Shown: positions 8,002 to 64,000 of the stretch, piece by piece | Layout: every line of letters starts with the position of its first letter | Position numbering within the stretch: the first letter of the stretch is position 1 | From: an uncultured Chloroflexia bacterium | Lineage (GTDB): Bacteria; Chloroflexota; Anaerolineae; B4-G1; SLSP01 | DNA: 64,000 nt | Direction: 5' to 3' | NCBI GenBank assembly: GCA_963751345.1 | Contig: CAVVUS010000010.1 | Coordinates: forward strand, 64,001-128,000 | Translations under genes and position numbers: made by a program | The notes under the pieces: generated by a model | The model's database searches: none | What the model was told of the DNA's origin: nothing | The model's input: only the letters and a program-made list of their open reading frames with translations

Positions 8002-8937
8002 TCACAGCTTCAGGCGCGGGTCGAGCGCGTCACGCAGGCCGTCACCGACGTAGTTGAAGGCCAGCGATGTCAGGAAGATCGCCAGACCCGGATAGAAAAC
8101 CTTGGCCGGCTGGCCCAACAGGCCTGCTTGAGCTGCTTGCAGCATATTGCCCCATGTAGGAACCGGGGGCTGGACGCCAAACCCGAGGAAACTCAGGGCC
8201 GACTCCAGCACGATCACACCGCCCAACCCCAGTGTCGCGTGGACGATGATGGGAGCCATCGCATTCGGAATCATATGACGCAGAATAATCCGACCATTCG
8301 ACATTCCCAGCGCCCTTGCGGCCTCGGAGAAGTCGAGCCCTCGCAGGCTCAACACCATGCCACGCACAAGGCGGCAGGTGCCCATCCACCCAAAGGCGAT
8401 CAGGATGACCACGATCACGACCACGCTGGTGTATTCGTCGGGCACGAAGGGTAAGGTGAAGCCCCGCAGAATCGCGCCGAAGGCTAACAGCAGGGGAAGC
8501 AGGGGGATCGTCAGCAGGAAGTCAACGATACGTTGTGTCAGACTGTCCACCCATCCACCATAGTATCCTGAGATCCCTCCTAGAACGGCGCCAAAGACCT
8601 CACTCACGAGCGTCACCACAAACGCGACGGTGAGCGAGATCCGTGCGGCGTACAACAACCTGCTGAAGACGTCCCTTCCGACGTCATCGGTTCCGAGCAG
8701 GTGCTCAGGGCTGGGGGGCACATTCCTGCTGTACGGATCCTGGTAGGTGATGGGGTCATAGGGCGCCACAACGGGGGCAAAGATCCCCATCAAGAGAAAG
8801 GCACCCAGGACGATCATCCCCGCGACGGCCAATCTGTGGCGTCTGAACCGACGCCAGACCACGAGGAACTGGCTTTCCTTTTCAGGTGTCAACAGACCTT
8901 CTGCATCAAGTTGCTCGACCATTGGTTCTTCTGACAT
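8002..8937 (-). CDS. oppC: Oligopeptide ABC transporter permease
   Basis: HLLGTDDVGRDVFSR, EAARALG, ESALSFLGFG, GDGLRDALDPR; likely start ATG 8937. Confidence 0.92.
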   Translation of the reverse strand: MSEEPMVEQLDAEGLLTPEKESQFLVVWRRFRRHRLAVAGMIVLGAFLLMGIFAPVVAPYDPITYQDPYSRNVPPSPEHLLGTDDVGRDVFSRLLYAARISLTVAFVVTLVSEVFGAVLGGISGYYGGWVDSLTQRIVDFLLTIPLLPLLLAFGAILRGFTLPFVPDEYTSVVVIVVILIAFGWMGTCRLVRGMVLSLRGLDFSEAARALGMSNGRIILRHMIPNAMAPIIVHATLGLGGVIVLESALSFLGFGVQPPVPTWGNMLQAAQAGLLGQPAKVFYPGLAIFLTSLAFNYVGDGLRDALDPRLKL

Positions 8938-57257: not shown

Positions 57258-58202
57258 TCACTCCCTCAGCGCCCTTCCGGTAAGATGTAGGAAGACCGCT
57301 TCCAGGTTGGGTTCCTGGATATCCAGGGACGTGATCCGGACACCGACCGCCGTCGCGGACTCGAACAAGCGCGGCAACACCACGTTGCTGTCTTCCACCA
57401 GCAAGGTGAGTGTCCCATCCTCTGCCGAGATGTGATGCACCCCTTCGGTAGCTTGCCAGGACTCCAGGACTTTCCCGGAGTCGGCGTCAATCGTCAAGTT
57501 GATGCGATCCAGCTCCCCCACAATCTTGACCAGCTCGTCATGGGTCCCGTAGGCGATGATCTTCCCATGATCCATGATGGCAATATGGTCGGAGAGTTCC
57601 TGGGCCTCTTCCATATAGTGCGTGGTGTACAGCACCGTCATCCCTTCTTGGTTCAGCGCCTTGACGTTGTCCAGAATGTGGCGTCTGCTTTGGGGATCGA
57701 TGCCCACGGTCGGCTCGTCCATGATAATGACCTGGGGTTTGTGCAACAGGGCGATGCCGATGTTCAAGCGGCGTTTCATTCCCCCGGAGAACGTCCCCGC
57801 CCTATCGTTCTGGCGATCGACCAACTCGATGATTTCCAGCACTTGCGCCGCCCGTTGGTGCAGGACTTCGCCCCGCAGCCCGTACATCCTGCCCCAGAAG
57901 ACCAGGTTCTCCCGTGCCGAGAGATCCGGGTAGAGCGCGATCTCCTGTGGCACGACCCCGATCGACTGCTTCACCGCCTGCGGTTGGGTCCTGATGGAAT
58001 GCCCCATGACCCTGGCATCGCCTTGCGTGGGCTGAGCCAGACAGGCGAGCATCGAAATCGTCGTGCTCTTGCCTGCACCATTAGGCCCCAATAGGCTGAA
58101 TATCTCGCCGTCCGCTACCTCGAAATCGAGCCCGTCCACGGCGTGGAGTTCGCCGAAGTCCTTGTGCAGATCTTGAACTTGAATCGCTTTTCCCTTGTCC
58201 AC
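57258..58202 (-). CDS. ABC exporter ATP-binding protein (DrrA-like)
   Basis: GPNGAGKS, FSGGMKRR, DEPTVGIDP, TTHYMEEA; GTG 58202 with AAGGAG RBS. Confidence 0.92.
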   Translation of the reverse strand: MDKGKAIQVQDLHKDFGELHAVDGLDFEVADGEIFSLLGPNGAGKSTTISMLACLAQPTQGDARVMGHSIRTQPQAVKQSIGVVPQEIALYPDLSARENLVFWGRMYGLRGEVLHQRAAQVLEIIELVDRQNDRAGTFSGGMKRRLNIGIALLHKPQVIIMDEPTVGIDPQSRRHILDNVKALNQEGMTVLYTTHYMEEAQELSDHIAIMDHGKIIAYGTHDELVKIVGELDRINLTIDADSGKVLESWQATEGVHHISAEDGTLTLLVEDSNVVLPRLFESATAVGVRITSLDIQEPNLEAVFLHLTGRALRE

Positions 58203-58280
58203 CGTGTTTTGCTCCTTTGTGGAAATGCTTGGGACGCGGCCCATAGACTCTCTTGCCGCATCATAGAAGGGTCACTAACC

Positions 58281-59364
58281 CTACATCTCCTCCCCCACCT
58301 GGTGGGCCTTGACCCAGTCCCAGTCCACCTCGATCCCCAATCCCGGCGCATCCCAGGGCGCGGCATACCCCTCGCCGTCGATCTCCGTCGAGGCATCGCG
58401 GATGCCGGGTGGCGAATAGTAGGTCTCGGGCACAAGGCGCTCGAAGTATTTGGTGTTGTAGATCGCGCAGGCCGCGTGCAGATGCGGGATCGCGCCGCCG
58501 TGGATCGCCGCCATCATGCCGAAGCCCTCGCAGATGTGTGCCGTCTTCAGCACGCCGGTGAGGCCGCCTTTGTAGGCGTCGAGCGGGCCCGTGAGGATGA
58601 TGTCAGCGGCGCCCATCTGGATGTGCGTCAGCGCGTCCCAGGGACCTCCGTGGGTGGCCTCGGCCAGCGCCAGCGGGATGTCGAGGGTCTGCCGGAGCCG
58701 TGCCAGCGCCGTGATGTTGAAGTGGTCCATCGGCTCCTCGTACCAGGTAGAAGTCCTGCTCCTCCAGCCGCCGCCCAAACCAGACGGCGTCCTCGAAGAG
58801 GTTGAACATGCTGGAGGCATCGTACATCAGGACGACGTCCGGCCCGACCCGGTCACGTAGTGCTTTGCACAGCGCCGCATCTTCCTCCAGACGGCCCCAG
58901 GCGTGGAGCTTGATCGCCTTGTAGCCCTTTTCCAGGCACTCGTCGGCCAACGCCATGTACGCGTCGAGCGAGTCGAGGGTCACCGTACTGGCATAGGCCG
59001 GGACCTTGTCGCGCATCCCGCCGGCCAGCTTGTAGACGGGCTGGTTATGGACCTTGCCCGCCAGGTCCCAGAGCGCACAGTCCACCGCGCCCACCGCCAG
59101 GCCGAGCCGGCTGGTGCGCAGGTTGCGCCAGAACTTGTGCCAGATGCGCTCGCGGTTGAGCGGGTCCTCGCCGACGAGCTGGTACTTGATCTCCTCGATG
59201 CTTGCGCCACTGCTGTAGGGCGACCAGCCCTCGACGCCCTCATCGGTCAGGATGCGGAGCAGCGCGGTGTGCGCCATCGAGCCCGAGGGCATGATCCCGT
59301 CACGCCAGTGGTAGGGGCCCCGTTCCCATTCGATATGGTGGATGTGGATGCCGGTAATTCTCAT
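58281..59364 (-). CDS. Mandelate racemase/muconate lactonizing (enolase superfamily) enzyme (one frameshift)
   Basis: VDCALWDLAGK, KAIKLH, MYDA, WYEEP, PGLGIEVD. Confidence 0.88.
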
Positions 59365-59515
59365 CGATACCTCCCTTTGGTGCTAAGGGTTGGGCAGCTA
59401 AGCCTACGGAGTTAGCGTCGAGTGTACACCAGGCTGCGCGACTGTGCCATCTTCTATGCCGAATCGGGTGCCTATCAGGATAGGGGCGTAACGGCCGCGC
59501 CCGGCGATGAGGGCC

Positions 59516-59638
59516 GCCTGGCGATGAAGTCGCCAGGCTAGGAGGCAACGCCCCGTGAACGGGGCTGACCACGGTGCGAGGTATCTGAAGCCCGATTGAT
59601 CGGGCGCTACCTTGTAGCACGGGAATTGATTCCCGTGC
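59516..59638. repeat. Cluster of four short palindromes (REP/MITE-like)
   Basis: GCCTGGCGATGAAGTCGCCAGGC, GCCCCGTGAACGGGGC, GCCCGATTGATCGGGC, GCACGGGAATTGATTCCCGTGC. Confidence 0.55.
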
Positions 59639-59943
59639 GGCTTCGAGGCGAAACGCGCCTGGACCTGTCCCCCACCGCTCCCCACCCGCCGCCGCTCGGC
59701 ACGCCTGGCCCGCTGTCGCCGAGCCCACGCCACGTGTGAAATCGTCTCTCGTTCGCACCTTCGTGGCCACTTTCCCCCACCGCCGCCCACATCCCACAAC
59801 AAAGGACGGCGGCCACTCTGTAGCCGCCGTCGCCGTCGACTTGTCCCACGAAACACCTGGAGCTGTCCCGGCATCCCTAACCCCTTCCCCAGCTCGTCAT
59901 ATAGCTCGTCAAGCAGCCGGTCGCTTGTTTCCTGTTTGTCTCA

Positions 59944-59972
59944 ATGATAGATCATATGTTCTATCCAATCAA
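59944..59972 (-). promoter_or_regulatory. Leftward sigma70 promoter with LexA-type box in spacer
   Basis: Minus strand TTGATT-GGATAGAACATATGATC-TATCAT (17-bp spacer); GAAC-ATAT-GATC is a one-mismatch SOS box. Confidence 0.6.
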
Positions 59973-59998
59973 GTCTGGAGCCAGAGGGGGGTGGAGGG

Positions 59999-60027
59999 TT
60001 GATTGGGTAGAACATGTGTTCTATACT
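59999..60027 (+). promoter_or_regulatory. Rightward sigma70 promoter with perfect LexA-type (GAAC-N4-GTTC) box
   Basis: TTGATT-GGGTAGAACATGTGTTC-TATACT (17-bp spacer); TAGAACATGTGTTCTA at 60008-60023. Confidence 0.75.
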
Positions 60028-60104
60028 GAGACTATGAATACGCAGCACTGCCGCCGCAACCCGCATCCCGTGCAGCATAACCTGTCCCTGCGAAAGGAAC
60101 CCTA

Positions 60105-60605
60105 ATGGATATCCAAGCCCTCAAGCGAATCCTGAAACGCGTCGAGACCAAGACCACGACGCCCACCGACGCTGAAGCCCTGCGCGCCATCTTCCGCCCC
60201 TACCTCGACCCTGACCGCGCCACCCCTGCCGGCGAAGAGGCCCACCACGACGACAAGTTCAACCGCCGCGTCGGTTCCCGCGCCATCGTCGACCTCGGCT
60301 TCACCCGCGCCCGCTATCATCGTGGCGAATTCCGCGTCCAGGCCACTTATCACCACACCGACGGCGCCTCCAGCACCGACAGCAGCCACCGGGTCCCGAT
60401 CCGCGGCCCGCTCGCCGGCATCATCGTCGACCTCTGGGAGACCATCTTCGACGCCACCGCTGTGGCGGCCCAGAACGACCCCGCCACCCTCACGCTGCGC
60501 ATCGACGGCACCGGCCTCGAGTGCCCATGGTCCCACCTCCTTCGCGCCGCCGCCGAGATCGTCGCTCACGAACTCCACACCCTCCTCGAGGCCCCCGGGC
60601 CGTGA
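60105..60605 (+). CDS. Hypothetical protein (166 aa) downstream of SOS-type promoter
   Basis: AAAGGA RBS, ATG, C-ending codon bias like the next gene; no recognised motif. Confidence 0.7.
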   Translation: MDIQALKRILKRVETKTTTPTDAEALRAIFRPYLDPDRATPAGEEAHHDDKFNRRVGSRAIVDLGFTRARYHRGEFRVQATYHHTDGASSTDSSHRVPIRGPLAGIIVDLWETIFDATAVAAQNDPATLTLRIDGTGLECPWSHLLRAAAEIVAHELHTLLEAPGP

Positions 60606-60837
60606 CCGGCGCACCTCGGACCGCGCCGGTGCTCATCCCCACGGTGCCCCACCCGGCAGACCCACGCACGCCTGCCGTCGTCGCCCCTCGTCCACCGCGA
60701 CGCCCAAAAAGGCCGTCCCTGACGTGTTCCTGTCCACTTTCCCCCACTGCCGCCCACGCGCAGCGCACCCTGTGAAACACTGCAGGGCGGTCACACCCGT
60801 GACCGCCCTGCAGCCCCCGAACGACCAAGGAGGACCG

Positions 60838-61773
60838 ATGGCAACCCGCGACACCCTACTGATGATCCGCAACCTCAAAGGCGCCCCCGCCACCATCCTG
60901 CTGATGATGCTCGGCCTGGGCCGCCCCACCGGGCGTGACGAGCTCGTGCTCCTCACCACTTACAGCGAACATACCGTCCAGAAGGCCCTCGACCAACTCG
61001 CCTATCTCGGCCTGGCCCGGAACCACGGCCGCTACAACGCCTGGGCCCTCACCGCCCACGTCGCCCAATCCCTCCCTGTGGCGCTGCCCGCCGGGGAAGA
61101 GCAAAATCCGCACACCGACCCCGACGCCGGCGAGCCCGACCCTACCCGCGAGGTGCAAAAACCACACCTCGAATCACTCGACCCAGCCCGGGAAGTGCAG
61201 ATTGTGCACCTCGACCTCGACGCCGGCGACCCCGGTCCCGTCCGGGAGGTGCAAAAACCACACCTCGAATCGCTCGACACAGCCCGGGAGGTGCAAAAAA
61301 TACACCTCGGCAGTAGTAGTAGTTACTACACTCCCTCTTCAGAGAGACACCAATCTCTCCAAACCTCAGAAACTACAACTACCCCCGACCGCGAAAAGTG
61401 CACCTCGCCGCCGCCGGTGCCGGGCGCACCGGTATCCCTGGACCCCTGCGTCTTCGATGCTGACGCCGAAGCTGCCGTCGACCTTCTCCGCCCCACCGGC
61501 TGCCCTGAGGTCCATCCCGCCGGCAGGGGCATCCGCGGCGCCATCCGGGCAGCCCTCGCGGGCGGCTGGACCGGCGCCGACGTCCTAGACGCCACCCGGG
61601 GCTGGCTCGCCTACGCCGCCACCCCCGCCGGCAAAAGCATCGACCACGCCGGCTTCCTCGCCCTTGCCAGGATCCGTGCCTGCCGGTGGCCGCCCGAGCC
61701 CCTGCCCAAATCCGCCGCCGACATCACCCGCGCCTACATCGACGCCGCCTATGACCGCATCGTGCGCCGCTGA
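60838..61773 (+). CDS. wHTH protein with internal repeats; putative phage/plasmid-type replication initiator
   Basis: AAGGAGG RBS before ATG 60838; N-terminal HTH-like GRDELVLLTTYSEHTVQKALDQLAYLGL; central REVQKPHL repeats; Ser/Thr linker; helical C-terminal domain. Confidence 0.65.
   Translation: MATRDTLLMIRNLKGAPATILLMMLGLGRPTGRDELVLLTTYSEHTVQKALDQLAYLGLARNHGRYNAWALTAHVAQSLPVALPAGEEQNPHTDPDAGEPDPTREVQKPHLESLDPAREVQIVHLDLDAGDPGPVREVQKPHLESLDTAREVQKIHLGSSSSYYTPSSERHQSLQTSETTTTPDREKCTSPPPVPGAPVSLDPCVFDADAEAAVDLLRPTGCPEVHPAGRGIRGAIRAALAGGWTGADVLDATRGWLAYAATPAGKSIDHAGFLALARIRACRWPPEPLPKSAADITRAYIDAAYDRIVRR
61096..61308 (+). repeat. Five iteron-like 21-bp repeats (GAGGTG-N9-CACCTC consensus)
   Basis: Copies start at 61096 (degenerate), 61150, 61192, 61246 and 61288; spacings 54/42/54/42. 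Confidence 0.85.
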
Positions 61774-62050
61774 TGGCCGATGGCCGTCAACTCACAACCG
61801 GGGTAGCGTGTAGAATGCGTCCAACTCTCCATCAGGGCTAACCGAAGCGATGCCGAAGAACCCCTACTCCTCAAGATCTGCGTGGCCCTTGCCGAGGCCG
61901 GCTTCATCGACCTCGCCCCATCGATCGCCCAGTTCGTCTGCGACAACGCCCCCAGGGATCTCGATTCCCCGACGGGACGTGCCAACATCAACTGGACTAA
62001 CTCGTGCCAGATCAGGGAACGTCTGCGGGGAGGGCCACTGCTGCCGATGA

Positions 62051-62110
62051 AGACCTTTGGGGTTTCCCCGTCAAGCAGACGATTACTCGTGAAGAAAACC
62101 CCAGAGGTCT
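62051..62110. repeat. Inverted pair of REP-like 15-mers
   Basis: AGACCTTTGGGGTTT ... AAACCCCAGAGGTCT (one mismatch). Confidence 0.55.
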
Positions 62111-62427
62111 CAGCGCGGGCACACGGCGCGAATCGTGTCCGGCTCGAAGCATCTGAGTGCCCAGACCGGTTTCCCCGGCAAGCCTGCCCAATGGCGCCGC
62201 CTACTTCGTTGGCGGATCAGGTAGGCGCGGAGACAAGCTGTGGGTCCTACAAGTGGACGTTGGCAAGCGTGCGCAACACAGTAGACTGCGTCACGGCCAT
62301 GATCCGGCATGGTCGAGAGCGCCTCGATGTGTGCAAATAGTTCAAGAATCCTGAACTCTATGCACACGTCGTCGTTCAGAATCGGGATGTGTATAATGTC
62401 GTCATAGAGCTTCAACGAGGGGGCAGT

Positions 62428-62616
62428 ATGATAGATAGAATAACCGTTGATCCTGAGATTCACTTTGGAAAGCCTTGCGTAGCCGGGACGCGCATCACGG
62501 TGCAGAATGTTTTGGAGCTACTCGATGAGGATCTGTCCTTCGACGAGATCATTGGGGGCTACTATCCCGATCTGACGCCCGAAGACATTCGGGCCTGTAT
62601 GCAGTACGCTCTCTGA
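62428..62616 (+). CDS. DUF433-family antitoxin-like protein
   Basis: RITVDPEIHFGKPCVAGTRITV..YPDLTPEDIRACMQY; upstream TATAAT and GAGG. Confidence 0.88.
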   Translation: MIDRITVDPEIHFGKPCVAGTRITVQNVLELLDEDLSFDEIIGGYYPDLTPEDIRACMQYAL

Positions 62617-62728
62617 ATCCGATGGTGCAGGCGCGACCTCTCGGTGATCTTGGATAGAATCCTATTCACATGTTGATAAGTGAAGAGCTTTTTATCCAGT
62701 CTCGCCGTCACAACGGTGAGCAGCGACA

Positions 62729-63037
62729 ATGGCATCCGTCACCGATATACAGGAAGCCGAAGCGCTCGAGATCTTCCGCCGGCACGGTGGAACGCTGCGG
62801 ACCAAAGAGGCGCTGGCGCTGGGCATCCATCCGCGCACGCTCTACGCGCTGCGTGACGCCGGGGACCTCGAACGCCTGAGTCGCGGCCTCTATCGCCTGG
62901 CCGAGCTGCCGGCGCCGGCGGAACCCGATCTGGTCATCGTGGCCAAGCGCGCGCCCGGTGCGGTCCTCTGTCTCATCTCGGCCCTCGCCTATCATGGGCT
63001 GACGACACAGATCCCCCACGTGGTGGACCTTAGGTAG
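62729..63037 (+). pseudogene. Type IV TA AbiEi-family antitoxin, truncated
   Basis: HGGTLRTKEALALGI, LERLSRGLYRL, LISALAYHGLTTQIP, then stop at 102 aa. Confidence 0.75.
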
Positions 63038-63141
63038 TAGTCAGCTATCTGCCTAAAGGAGAACCAATCGTCACTTGTGAAGGACCTCTGAAACTGAGTC
63101 TTCACCTGGGCTCCAATGGAGTCTTCGTTCATATCACACCC

Positions 63142-64000
63142 CTAGAACCCGGAGAAGAACGGTATCAACAAAACCCTCCACTCGCCTTTTGGATTACCTC
63201 TGACCCAGCAGTGTCCGGAGGCATCCTCAAACAACATACGAACTGAGAACTGTTTGCTTAAGTCCTGATCGAATCTGGTGTATGAAATCCGAGTGCCAAT
63301 CACTGACACGGCTGGAGCAACATCCTCAATACTGGCCATCTCGAAACCTCGGAGCTGGACTTCTCCGAATAACTCTCTGAGCCAGCCCGCAGTCATCCCG
63401 ACTGTATCTTTTCTGTTCATCGCACAAAGTCGCTGAGCCATCTTGCCGTAATTGCCTACCATCCATAGCTCCAGAAATTCCGCAAGCGCCCTTTCTGGAG
63501 TAAGCTCTCCATACGCAGAAGATGGTCCAGACGTCGGGAAATCCGCTGGAGTTGAGAGATTCCGCGGCTTCCAGGCCTCGATCTTGGCGGTCTCCTCTTG
63601 GTTATCTCTGATAGATTCCAAGATCTCGATCCAGGAGCGTTCGTGCTCAGGTTCAGGCTTAGGCTTTCTGAGAGCAACCACCCAGTCTCGTAGCGCGAAT
63701 AAGGCCGCCCAGGACTTCGCAGCACAAGCCTTGTTATCGTAACCAAGATCCCTTCCATGCAGAATCCCATGTCGATAAGGAATAGTGATCACCTCTGAGG
63801 TAGTCACCGTGCGACTCCTGCCGAGGGTCTTTGCCAGCGTCTGGAGTCCGGTACTATGCGCTGCAATGGAGTCCCAAGCCGTCAGGTCCGTTCCTTCCGC
63901 AAAGAAGCCTTTCAGCGCAATATCATTGACGAGACCCTCGATATTTGCCAGGATCACGGGTACGCAGGCGTAGTATCGTTCCGCTATGTAATCCTCAAGT
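63142..64000 (-). CDS. Hypothetical protein with HEPN-like RxxxxH motif (5' end outside window)
   Basis: Frame open to the window edge (LEDYIAERYYACVPVILANIEG..); YRHGILHG motif; visibly lower GC than flanks. Confidence 0.7.
   Translation of the reverse strand, partial: LEDYIAERYYACVPVILANIEGLVNDIALKGFFAEGTDLTAWDSIAAHSTGLQTLAKTLGRSRTVTTSEVITIPYRHGILHGRDLGYDNKACAAKSWAALFALRDWVVALRKPKPEPEHERSWIEILESIRDNQEETAKIEAWKPRNLSTPADFPTSGPSSAYGELTPERALAEFLELWMVGNYGKMAQRLCAMNRKDTVGMTAGWLRELFGEVQLRGFEMASIEDVAPAVSVIGTRISYTRFDQDLSKQFSVRMLFEDASGHCWVRGNPKGEWRVLLIPFFSGF

Follow-up and report, generated by a model that had tools for sequence, protein, structure and literature searches.

A putative phage-derived replication cassette under predicted LexA control in an Anaerolineae chromosome

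The tum-type antirepressor wiring of coliphage 186 is a LexA-controlled prophage function. In lambdoid phages, the replication origin lies in the middle of gene O, where an AT-rich tract comes after the iterons, and the O protein grows longer with additional iterons (as described in passages of PMC7466680). Operon I of the Staphylococcus aureus pathogenicity islands (SaPIs) is controlled by LexA (as stated in part of PMC5052747). Neither the lambda-O/ori layout nor the control of phage or satellite modules by LexA is new, and the module described here is a variation on both. It is contained within a window, i.e. the whole stretch of 64,000 nucleotides that was analysed (positions 64001-128000 of contig C10), taken from G000, a 5.4-Mb draft genome in 49 contigs, whose named close relatives are metagenome-assembled genomes labelled Chloroflexia, Anaerolineales or Anaerolineae. 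Two open reading frames (ORFs), ORF166 and ORF311, a pair of divergent promoters with LexA boxes, a set of iterons located inside ORF311 and two clusters of MraZ boxes compose the module. A sister locus, L029, is found in a second genome, G002: its flanks are the same as those of the window (90-95% identical), and the module itself is about 84% identical.

The best explanation of these features is a phage-derived replication cassette, kept in the chromosome under selection and directly controlled by LexA; a probability of about 0.55 is assigned to this statement as a whole. Taken separately, LexA control of the module and the identity of ORF311 and its iterons as initiator and origin are each rather likely on sequence grounds, and the firing of this origin in situ is a tentative proposal, with somewhat less than an even chance. 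According to the proposed mechanism, DNA damage would lead to RecA-stimulated cleavage of LexA and the rightward promoter would open; dimers of ORF311 would next bind the intragenic iterons and melt the neighbouring AT tract, the C-terminal domain would recruit the host helicase, and a DnaA-independent origin would fire in situ. Since no integrase is present, the expected product of firing would be locally amplified DNA and not a free circle. The leftward promoter would once have driven a terS-like gene. A preliminary description of this DNA had proposed an SOS-wired minimal replicon: a phage-type initiator with an intragenic origin-like region and a LexA-boxed promoter were retained from that proposal, and a leftward unit complementary to the rep-like leader and REP-like flanks were not. 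The coordinates of all features are reported in Table 1.

Table 1. Features of the module and of its immediate surroundings, in window coordinates
Feature	Position	Strand	Remarks
Hairpin-forming dispersed-repeat cluster (REP/MITE-like)	59493..59650	.	Not part of the module; 18 HSPs, 16 places, 11 contigs
MraZ-box cluster, copy 1	59655..59800	-	A site GTGGGCGGCGGTGGGGGAAAGTGG 59767-59790; two-box B site ~59670-59688
Terminator-like hairpin, 12 pairs, then CTTTGTTGTG	59805..59831	-	Terminator scan and inverted repeat
terS-like gene remnant	59832..59936	-	Last ~25 codons left (…DRLLDELYDELGKGLG…)
Leftward promoter TTGATT-17-TATCAT	59944-59972	-	LexA box 1 within spacer and -10 region
LexA box 1, TAGATCATATGTTCTA	59948-59963		One mismatch to TAGAAC-N4-GTTCTA
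Rightward promoter TTGATT-17-TATACT	59999-60027	+	LexA box 2 within spacer and -10 region
LexA box 2, TAGAACATGTGTTCTA	60008-60023		Perfect, zero mismatches to TAGAAC-N4-GTTCTA
ORF166	60105..60605	+	Two N-terminal helices and predicted RNase-H-like (RuvC-like) domain, residues 55-166
MraZ-box cluster, copy 2, in the ORF166-ORF311 spacer	60622..60760	-	A site GTGGGCGGCAGTGGGGGAAAGTGG 60734-60757; B site ~60637-60655
Hairpin of 15 bp, perfectly paired, directly before the ORF311 ribosome-binding site	60780..60813	.	Inverted-repeat scan
ORF311	60838..61773	+	Predicted wHTH, residues 1-78; disordered linker, 80-198; helical C-domain, 205-311
Five in-frame palindromic iterons, consensus GAGGTGCAAAnTTTGCACCTC	61096..61308	.	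Includes a 96-nt tandem duplication
(AGT)4 run and A/T-richer tract, candidate DNA-unwinding element	61309..61410	.	49% GC
Sixth, half-degenerate iteron closing the A/T-richer tract	~61390-61410
Segment 3' of ORF311	61808..62048	+	~90% identical to L029; open frame (…EEPLLLKICVALAEAGFIDL…), canonical start codon absent
Long palindromic dispersed repeat (REP/MITE-like)	62049..62120	.	Inverted in L029
Abbreviations: HSP, high-scoring segment pair; MITE, miniature inverted-repeat transposable element; REP, repetitive extragenic palindrome; wHTH, winged helix-turn-helix.

The promoter scan identified, at 59944-60027, two sigma-70-type promoters arranged back to back; 4 promoter-like sites were obtained in the 3.1 kb scanned, vs 0.4 in shuffled sequences. 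Each LexA box overlaps a predicted core promoter, covering the 17-nt spacer and the -10 region. The 16-nt consensus TAGAAC-N4-GTTCTA is present in 7 perfect copies across the genome, and the motif, with 0-2 mismatches, sits upstream of lexA (C10:27690), recA (C26:45882) and an imuB-like gene (C47:39838): judged by these positions, it is the LexA box of the organism itself. The mirror-image LexA-box promoters of the preliminary description are therefore present, with boxes that fit the genome's own consensus at lexA, recA and imuB. The core GAAC-N4-GTTC occurs once in the window, vs 0.73 expected. The promoter/operator arms duplicate each other in inverted orientation (31 identical columns out of 39 aligned), which accounts for the two sub-threshold miRNA-model matches that were the only result of an Rfam scan of 58000-64000 (E up to 1). 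Both boxes are kept in the sister locus, with one mismatch each, despite the identity of only about 84% over the module. The rightward LexA promoter, 36 nt of which are 92% identical to a LexA promoter at C17:9416-9451, is the sole promoter predicted for ORF166 and ORF311, two genes with no predicted terminator in between.

ORF311 is predicted to carry a winged helix-turn-helix (wHTH) domain at its N-terminus. In the AlphaFold2 model, the block means of the predicted local distance difference test (pLDDT) score range between 86 and 92 over residues 11-70, and are lower at both ends of the domain. Fold matches of the N-domain reach Z scores of 10-11.9, the best being 7wze_A (Z 11.9, root-mean-square deviation (rmsd) 1.6, 71 residues aligned), and Foldseek matches are weaker (best E 0.014). 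All of them are generic wHTH regulators, such as those of the MarR, ArsR and IclR types. The whole model was used as the query and only the N-domain produced matches, a search by which the C-domain was barely tested. Compared with the sister locus, dN/dS (the ratio of nonsynonymous to synonymous substitution rates) is 0.33 for the N-domain and 0.55 for the C-domain, at a dS of about 0.3. The hairpin at 60780-60813 differs from its L029 copy by one compensatory base-pair change, by which pairing is kept.

The five iterons are located in the linker-coding DNA of ORF311, with a spacing of 54/42/54/42. Scoring as a match any site with at least 13/20 positions identical to the palindrome GAGGTGCAAAnTTTGCACCTC, only 8 further sites of this grade were found among the remaining 63,074 window positions. 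The iterons are followed by a region (61306-61400) of 49% GC, vs about 70% around it. The G+C content at third codon positions (GC3) is 0.64 in the iteron/AT part and 0.87 in the flanking ORF311 domains; within the same part, CAA accounts for 6 of 7 Gln codons, vs a genome-wide share of 0.19, and AGT for 4 of 11 Ser codons, vs 0.09. Iterons with the same consensus were found in the homologues of L029, L030 and L031 (3, 5 and 12, respectively), as well as in two viral contigs, L067 and L068, where two of them flank an AT-rich tract inside the gene; the tract after the iterons is present in all five loci. When one half of an iteron has changed in a homologue, the change is matched in the other half, so that dyad symmetry is preserved: as an example, GAGAGGCA…TGCCTCTC of L031 is 9/10 self-complementary, yet it matches the consensus at only 15/20 positions. 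The codon bias, the low GC3 and these symmetric changes argue for selection at the DNA level, i.e. the constraint on the linker region, as read from the sequences, is on DNA rather than on protein. The wHTH gene with internal iterons and a lower-GC tract, noted in the preliminary description, was thus confirmed, and the gene belongs to a predicted family of phage-type initiators.

In a distant family member (L082 1790-2170, G313:C38), the iterons inside the gene have another sequence, the palindrome GAACGGTCA-N5-TGACCGTTC, which is repeated about five times; after them come an AT-rich tract coding for His, Asp and Lys and a C-terminal zinc-ribbon-like CxxC…CxxC. The differing iteron suggests that the wHTH domain and its iterons may co-evolve.

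The closest described system is lambda O with ori-lambda, as also found in the Shiga toxin (Stx) phages P27 and 933W. The predicted layout of ORF311 is the same, with a domain for DNA binding at the N-terminus, one for binding a partner at the C-terminus and, between them, a flexible part whose coding sequence is the origin; dyad-symmetric iterons are followed by an AT-rich tract inside the gene, their number varies among relatives and alters the length of the protein, and a family member occupies an early-operon position in a temperate-phage-like contig. Unlike lambda O, ORF311 matches neither Phage_rep_O nor the O-like PHROGs, chimeric relatives being the only link; its iterons have another sequence; it is not followed by a P-like loader gene; and it stands, without a prophage, behind a LexA-box promoter, not a pR controlled by CI and Cro.

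A word-indexed search with ORF311 retrieved 10 relatives, and a profile search of 1.84 billion representatives retrieved 782 at E ≤ 0.001, 253 of them at E ≤ 1e-10. Domains were scanned in 100 of the 150 relatives listed (short fragments, the members of alignment A1 and the last 27 were left out). An additional C-terminal DnaA_N domain was found in 7 of these, and the PHROG 'replication initiation O-like' N-domain in 2. One of the O-like chimeras, P0100, shares the C-domain of ORF311 (hhalign probability 99%, 45% identity); in another relative, P0097, the family N-domain is followed by a Ser/Thr tract, the C-domain and then DnaA_N. Despite the 782 representatives, ORF311 and all but 2 of the 100 scanned relatives match no curated replication family; a family with the lambda-O layout would therefore provide a handle on the replication modules of Chloroflexota phages and on the prediction of origins in metagenomes.

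A scan of viral contigs with alignment A1 found nothing, and a scan with the narrower alignment A5 identified two IMG/VR contigs of about 40 kb each, L067 and L068. In L068, the family gene comes after an integrase gene and a divergent CI-like repressor gene and before ParB-like and methyltransferase genes; as judged from gene order, this is the replication-module (early-operon) position of a temperate-phage-like contig. Among the genomes sampled the family is rare and patchy: of 401 genomes from the class, 7 contain it, G000 being one of them, and in a phylum-wide sample it was detected in 1 of 401, G000 itself. Six genes from other genera keep the N-domain (L081, L082, L083, L087, L088 and L089). 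Their linkers again encode repeat arrays, the sequences of which differ from gene to gene; the array of L082 is palindromic and precedes an AT-rich tract, and L081 and L089 end in a segment that, judged by eye, looks of the DnaA_N type. A LexA-type box with at most one mismatch in its core lies in a promoter-like site within 130 nt upstream of 4 of these 6 genes (L082, L083, L087 and L088), 55 nt before the likely ATG in L082, and such boxes number only 5 in all 28,999 nt of the nine loci. The two family genes of G313, those whose surroundings were annotated, are solitary among housekeeping genes, with no phage genes within about 8 kb. The co-occurrence of SOS boxes and intragenic iterons without phage genes, expected on the preliminary description, was thus found in three further genomes (4 of 6 genes). 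Its idea of a stand-alone module holds in so far as solitary LexA-boxed genes recur, and fails for the two viral contigs, where the family is found in an integrase/repressor/early-operon setting. The solitary LexA-boxed members raise the question of whether some bacteria have domesticated damage-inducible secondary origins from phages.

In the same viral contigs (L068 6480-6640, L067 5950-6110), a perfect LexA box was observed right after a TATAAT and before a conserved small gene (M…LYRKLHAV…); in L068, it is located between the integrase and the CI-like repressor. By its position, this box looks like a LexA-controlled wiring of the antirepressor type. The module and the coliphage 186 tum-type wiring are alike in having a host LexA box directly on a phage-derived promoter, as do L067 and L068; unlike the tum case, LexA in the module is on the promoter leading to the initiator gene, and no repressor/antirepressor pair is present.

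The other gene behind the rightward promoter, ORF166, was modelled with a mean pLDDT of 76. The fold of residues 55-166 matches RuvC (4ld0_A, Z 9.1, rmsd 2.9, 96 residues aligned; 6lw3_A, Z 9.0) and PPX (3mdq_A, Z 9.3), and the top BFVD match is a phage RuvC (E 2.4e-4). The scores are middling: the model supports an RNase-H-like fold class, and not membership of a family. No match was obtained at threshold in Pfam, PHROG and NCBIfam, nor a usable one in the protein atlas, and a word search retrieved 4 relatives. Invariant acidic residues include D2, D22, E75, D86, D92, D116 and E156; the first-strand acidic position of RuvC, mapped by eye, is not conserved (D/D/H/A/A in five aligned homologues). 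Compared with L029, dN/dS is 0.37. ORF166 is probably a protein of the LexA regulon that would process DNA structures rather than serve the initiator specifically.

Two small observations touch ORF166. An ATG lies 7 nt past the rightward -10 in the window, in L029 and in L032; in the window it opens, at 60035, a 23-codon ORF (60035-60105) ending in TAATG, which overlaps the start of ORF166 and is a candidate for a leaderless, translationally coupled upstream ORF. The upstream peptide is conserved only over its first three residues. Elsewhere in G000 (C19:133408-133876, L028 5409-5877), a perfect LexA box precedes a 115-aa ORF that weakly resembles the C-terminal half of ORF166 (32% identity across 63 residues, E 4e-4) and may be a second SOS-regulated paralogue.

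On the left of the promoters, positions 59832-59935 of the window (104 nt) correspond to positions 6472-7086 of L029 (615 nt), i.e. about 510 nt are missing in the window. In L029, the leftward LexA promoter drives an intact terS-like ORF of 193 aa. The ORF-poor leftward unit of the preliminary description is what remains of this deleted gene, not an antisense or copy-control RNA; it is predicted to end at the hairpin at 59805-59831, ahead of the repeated core described below. The terS-like proteins of L029 and L030 match TerS only below threshold (phrog_1889, E 0.003; NF040601, E 1.8e-4 and 0.01). A paralogue on contig C17 (28% identical, E 3e-8) precedes TerL, portal and protease/capsid genes. 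The gene order in L030 and L035 is terS-like, ORF166, small reverse ORF, ORF311; together with the context of the C17 paralogue, it suggests that the three genes are an old phage-type neighbourhood, and the terS-like gene, intact in L029 and deleted in the window, points to an origin in the packaging/replication region of a phage or satellite. In G000 and G002, the divergent promoter pair with its mirror symmetry looks as if it arose by an inversion in which the promoter was duplicated. Two minus-strand ORFs of 156 aa (59404-59874) and 165 aa (59300-59797) were rejected as candidate genes, being Arg-rich wrong-frame products with no family match.

The C17 paralogue stands directly behind a perfect LexA box, contained in a TTGATT-17-TAATAT promoter (C17:9416-16000, L025 5400-12000), and LexA appears to control this phage head-packaging operon directly.

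SaPIs and the related phage-inducible chromosomal islands (PICIs) resemble the module in coupling an initiator to iterons around an AT-rich origin, in being small, in lacking capsid genes and, as far as the sister locus is concerned, in having a terS-like gene under a LexA-box promoter. Unlike them, the module has no integrase, att sites, master repressor or capsid-redirection genes; its similarity to TerS is weak and below cut-offs, with terS deleted in the window; LexA would also govern the initiator; and the synteny of the locus in two genomes points to vertical descent more than to mobility.

The LexA promoters-ORF166 segment is bracketed by two copies of a further element. Regions 59655-59840 and 60622-60820 are direct repeats, with a constant offset of 967 bp and a conserved core, read on the minus strand, of GTGGGCGGC(G/A)GTGGGGGAAAGTGG. 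An MraZ operator is made of at least three GTGG(G) boxes with 10-bp spacing (as defined in a portion of PMC12957436), and both module sites fit this definition, with three GTGG(G) boxes at a 10-bp period. The pattern GTGGG-N5-GTGGG-N5-GTGG occurs 3 times in the genome, vs 0.2 expected: two of the occurrences are in the module, and the third, at C20:25087, comes immediately after a TATAAT, upstream of mraZ-rsmH-ftsL-ftsI. The A site of copy 2 is identical to this mraZ-promoter operator (C20:25087-25110) at 24 of 24 positions, within a BLAST match of 25/25. Among 31 genomes, the pattern was found in 19, including G000, and a reversed control pattern gave 2 matches vs 36; in 16 relatives, as at the C20 site of G000, the GTGGG array follows a TATAAT just upstream of mraZ, located by tblastn. 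The A sites are letter-identical in G000 and G002, and the surrounding DNA is 72-84% identical. In each unit of about 150 nt, read along the minus strand, a terminator-like hairpin and a T-run come first, followed by the three-box site, more GTGG boxes and the two-box site, with additional boxes about 90 nt from each A site.

On these counts the MraZ sites of the module are statistically solid as sequence matches, and the clusters most likely bind MraZ. Such binding could act as a roadblock or loop, adding control by the state of cell division, or as a decoy. The complementarity to a rep-like leader, reported in the preliminary description, is instead this direct repeat, built around the host MraZ operator. 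Compared with the operator of the dcw (mra) cluster, the module sites are alike in their three GTGG(G) boxes at a 10-bp period and in the full identity of copy 2; they are unlike it in being outside dcw, after terminator-like hairpins and with no -10 in front. To our knowledge, MraZ targets outside dcw are poorly known. No precedent for duplicated MraZ operators was met in those parts of the literature that were consulted, in which no search was aimed at MraZ sites outside dcw. The two extra operators are the only ones outside the dcw promoter in G000, and not a letter of them differs between the species; binding of MraZ there, if it occurs, would tie together the SOS response, a replication origin and a cell-division regulator at one locus. 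A wider reading would be that Anaerolineae chromosomes carry solitary, LexA-gated, phage-descended origins that fire independently of DnaA on damage, with replication or local amplification as the outcome, and that the cassette of this lineage is also coupled to MraZ through the two operator clusters, which would act as a second gate (by roadblock or loop) or as an amplifiable decoy altering free MraZ and hence dcw expression; in this full form, the reading is clearly unlikely.

Several observations weigh against a LexA-controlled replication cassette with an MraZ input. ORF311 itself has no match in Pfam, PHROG or NCBIfam, Phage_rep_O and the O-like PHROGs included; its proposed link to initiators is drawn from its architecture and from relatives that share domains, and it was therefore filed as probably functioning like a lambda-O-type initiator, not as a member of the sequence family. 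No helicase, loader or primase gene adjoins the module. Several iterons of the window have a degenerate right half (ACCACACCTC for TTTGCACCTC), with a self-complementarity of 6-8/10; this may weaken the origin. The three genes all point the same way in L030 and L035 and are not separated by a LexA box there; LexA wiring of ORF311 is therefore not universal. Homologues of ORF166 are behind a LexA box in 4 of 7 loci (window, L029, L032 and L034), in two of which (L032 and L034) the ORF166 homologue is alone, once beside a tRNA-Asn gene; of the three loci without a seen box, L033 is cut off upstream, and L030 and L035 have the terS-like gene upstream. The link between LexA and ORF166 would thus be the more widely conserved one, and ORF311 may simply ride on the promoter of ORF166. 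As regards the MraZ sites, no -10 element precedes those of the module (GCTGCGC and TGGGAT are found instead, and no promoter is predicted), which makes a promoter-operator role unlikely. The extra sites occur only in G000 and G002 among the 31 genomes, and the pattern is absent from 17 further loci where ORF166 or ORF311 has a relative.

Other explanations of the module were weighed against the same evidence. The deletion of the terS-like gene, the REP cluster inserted on the left and the degenerate right halves of the iterons are signs of decay in the window; they would fit an inert relic, i.e. a decaying prophage or satellite fragment in which LexA boxes and iterons are leftovers, as would the lack of an adjacent integrase or other phage genes and the faster evolution of the module compared with its flanks (about 84% vs 90-95% nucleotide identity to L029). 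This explanation is judged unlikely: both ORFs are intact in G000 and G002, with a dN/dS of 0.33-0.55 at a dS of about 0.3, the LexA boxes, the compensated hairpin and both 24-nt MraZ sites are conserved, and solitary LexA-boxed genes of the family recur in three other genomes. Alternatively, ORF311 could be an SOS-induced transcription factor that binds the repeats of its own gene, for autoregulation or as a roadblock, with no role in replication. Its generic wHTH fold matches, its lack of a match to any replication family and the lack of a nearby helicase or loader gene are in line with such a role; it is made quite improbable by the AT-rich tract that follows the iterons in all the homologues examined, with rare codons indicating constraint on DNA, by the DnaA_N fusions in 7 of 100 relatives, by the C-domain shared with O-like initiators and by the position of the viral-contig gene in a temperate-phage replication module.

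A domesticated initiator/origin fragment, switched on by SOS, might also hinder related phages, incoming or induced, in their replication by titrating their initiator or the host helicase. Cells with part of the lambda replication region exclude lambdoid phages (as reported in the abstract of PMC3349717), the iteron consensus recurs in family members encoded by viral contigs, and genes of the DUF433 and AbiEi types lie immediately to the right, the variable region of L029 containing further AbiEi genes; the solitary genes of G313 are not in defence neighbourhoods, and such an anti-phage decoy, beside abortive-infection and toxin-antitoxin genes, is considered very improbable. Finally, a non-coding RNA made from the leftward LexA promoter would be complementary to the leader of ORF311, because 59655-59840 and 60622-60820 share the same sequence on the same strand, and could act as an antisense or copy-control RNA. 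Such a role is hardly credible, since the leftward transcript is predicted to stop at the T-tailed hairpin (59831-59805, minus strand), before reaching the shared core; moreover, the leftward unit of L029 is a gene for a 193-aa protein, the two copies resemble each other mainly in the MraZ boxes and are about 70% identical outside them, and Rfam gave no match beyond the two at the promoter inverted repeat. The phage-derived, LexA-controlled cassette kept under selection was thus retained as the preferred reading.

The surroundings of the cassette were also analyzed. Between 56 kb and the window end, and in the next 18 kb, no gene for an integrase, a repressor, a helicase or a capsid protein was detected, as the preliminary description had stated for the adjacent DNA. 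Signs of an integration site were limited: no convincing flanking direct repeats were found, and the only tRNA gene of the window is at 8318. A search for an empty site covered six other members of the genus with an orthologue of the racemase gene on the left of the module; their neighbouring genes differ, and no ORF166, ORF311 or terS-like gene is within 1.5 kb. The REP-like palindromes proposed to flank the module are present, as unrelated dispersed repeats and not as its ends: the left one is absent from L029, where the matching gap measures 42 nt vs 218 nt in the window, and on the right, region 62040-62125 produced 52 HSPs at 34 places on 18 contigs, positions 9317-9376 of L029 matching 62110-62051 of the window in reverse. 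The segment at 61808-62048 may be a gene remnant. The C-skew of the plus strand, noted earlier, was also found: GC skew ranges between -0.18 and -0.31 in intervals starting at 59600-61700, except for two weaker ones over the promoter region (59750-60199). Among the public sequencing runs listed, four DNA runs contain 0.05-0.16 of the window's words, and none is an RNA run.

On the left side, a gene of the mandelate-racemase/enolase type (window 58281-59364, minus strand) is split into two overlapping ORFs, 58281-58820 and 58603-59364; its orthologue in L029 is a single ORF of 360 aa, and the split is due to a frameshift or an assembly error. On the right, the flank is variable, with DUF433 and AbiEi-type antitoxin genes (window 62389-63037, L029 9630-13317); the flank of L029 contains extra insertions, including another AbiEi gene, and the region looks like a small defence or toxin-antitoxin islet beside the cassette. 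Elsewhere in G000, perfect LexA boxes are found at C14:37207 and C27:62985 (loci L002 and L004), directly before genes of the FtsK/SpoIIIE family (221 and 366 aa), which may encode SOS-controlled DNA translocases of other mobile elements.

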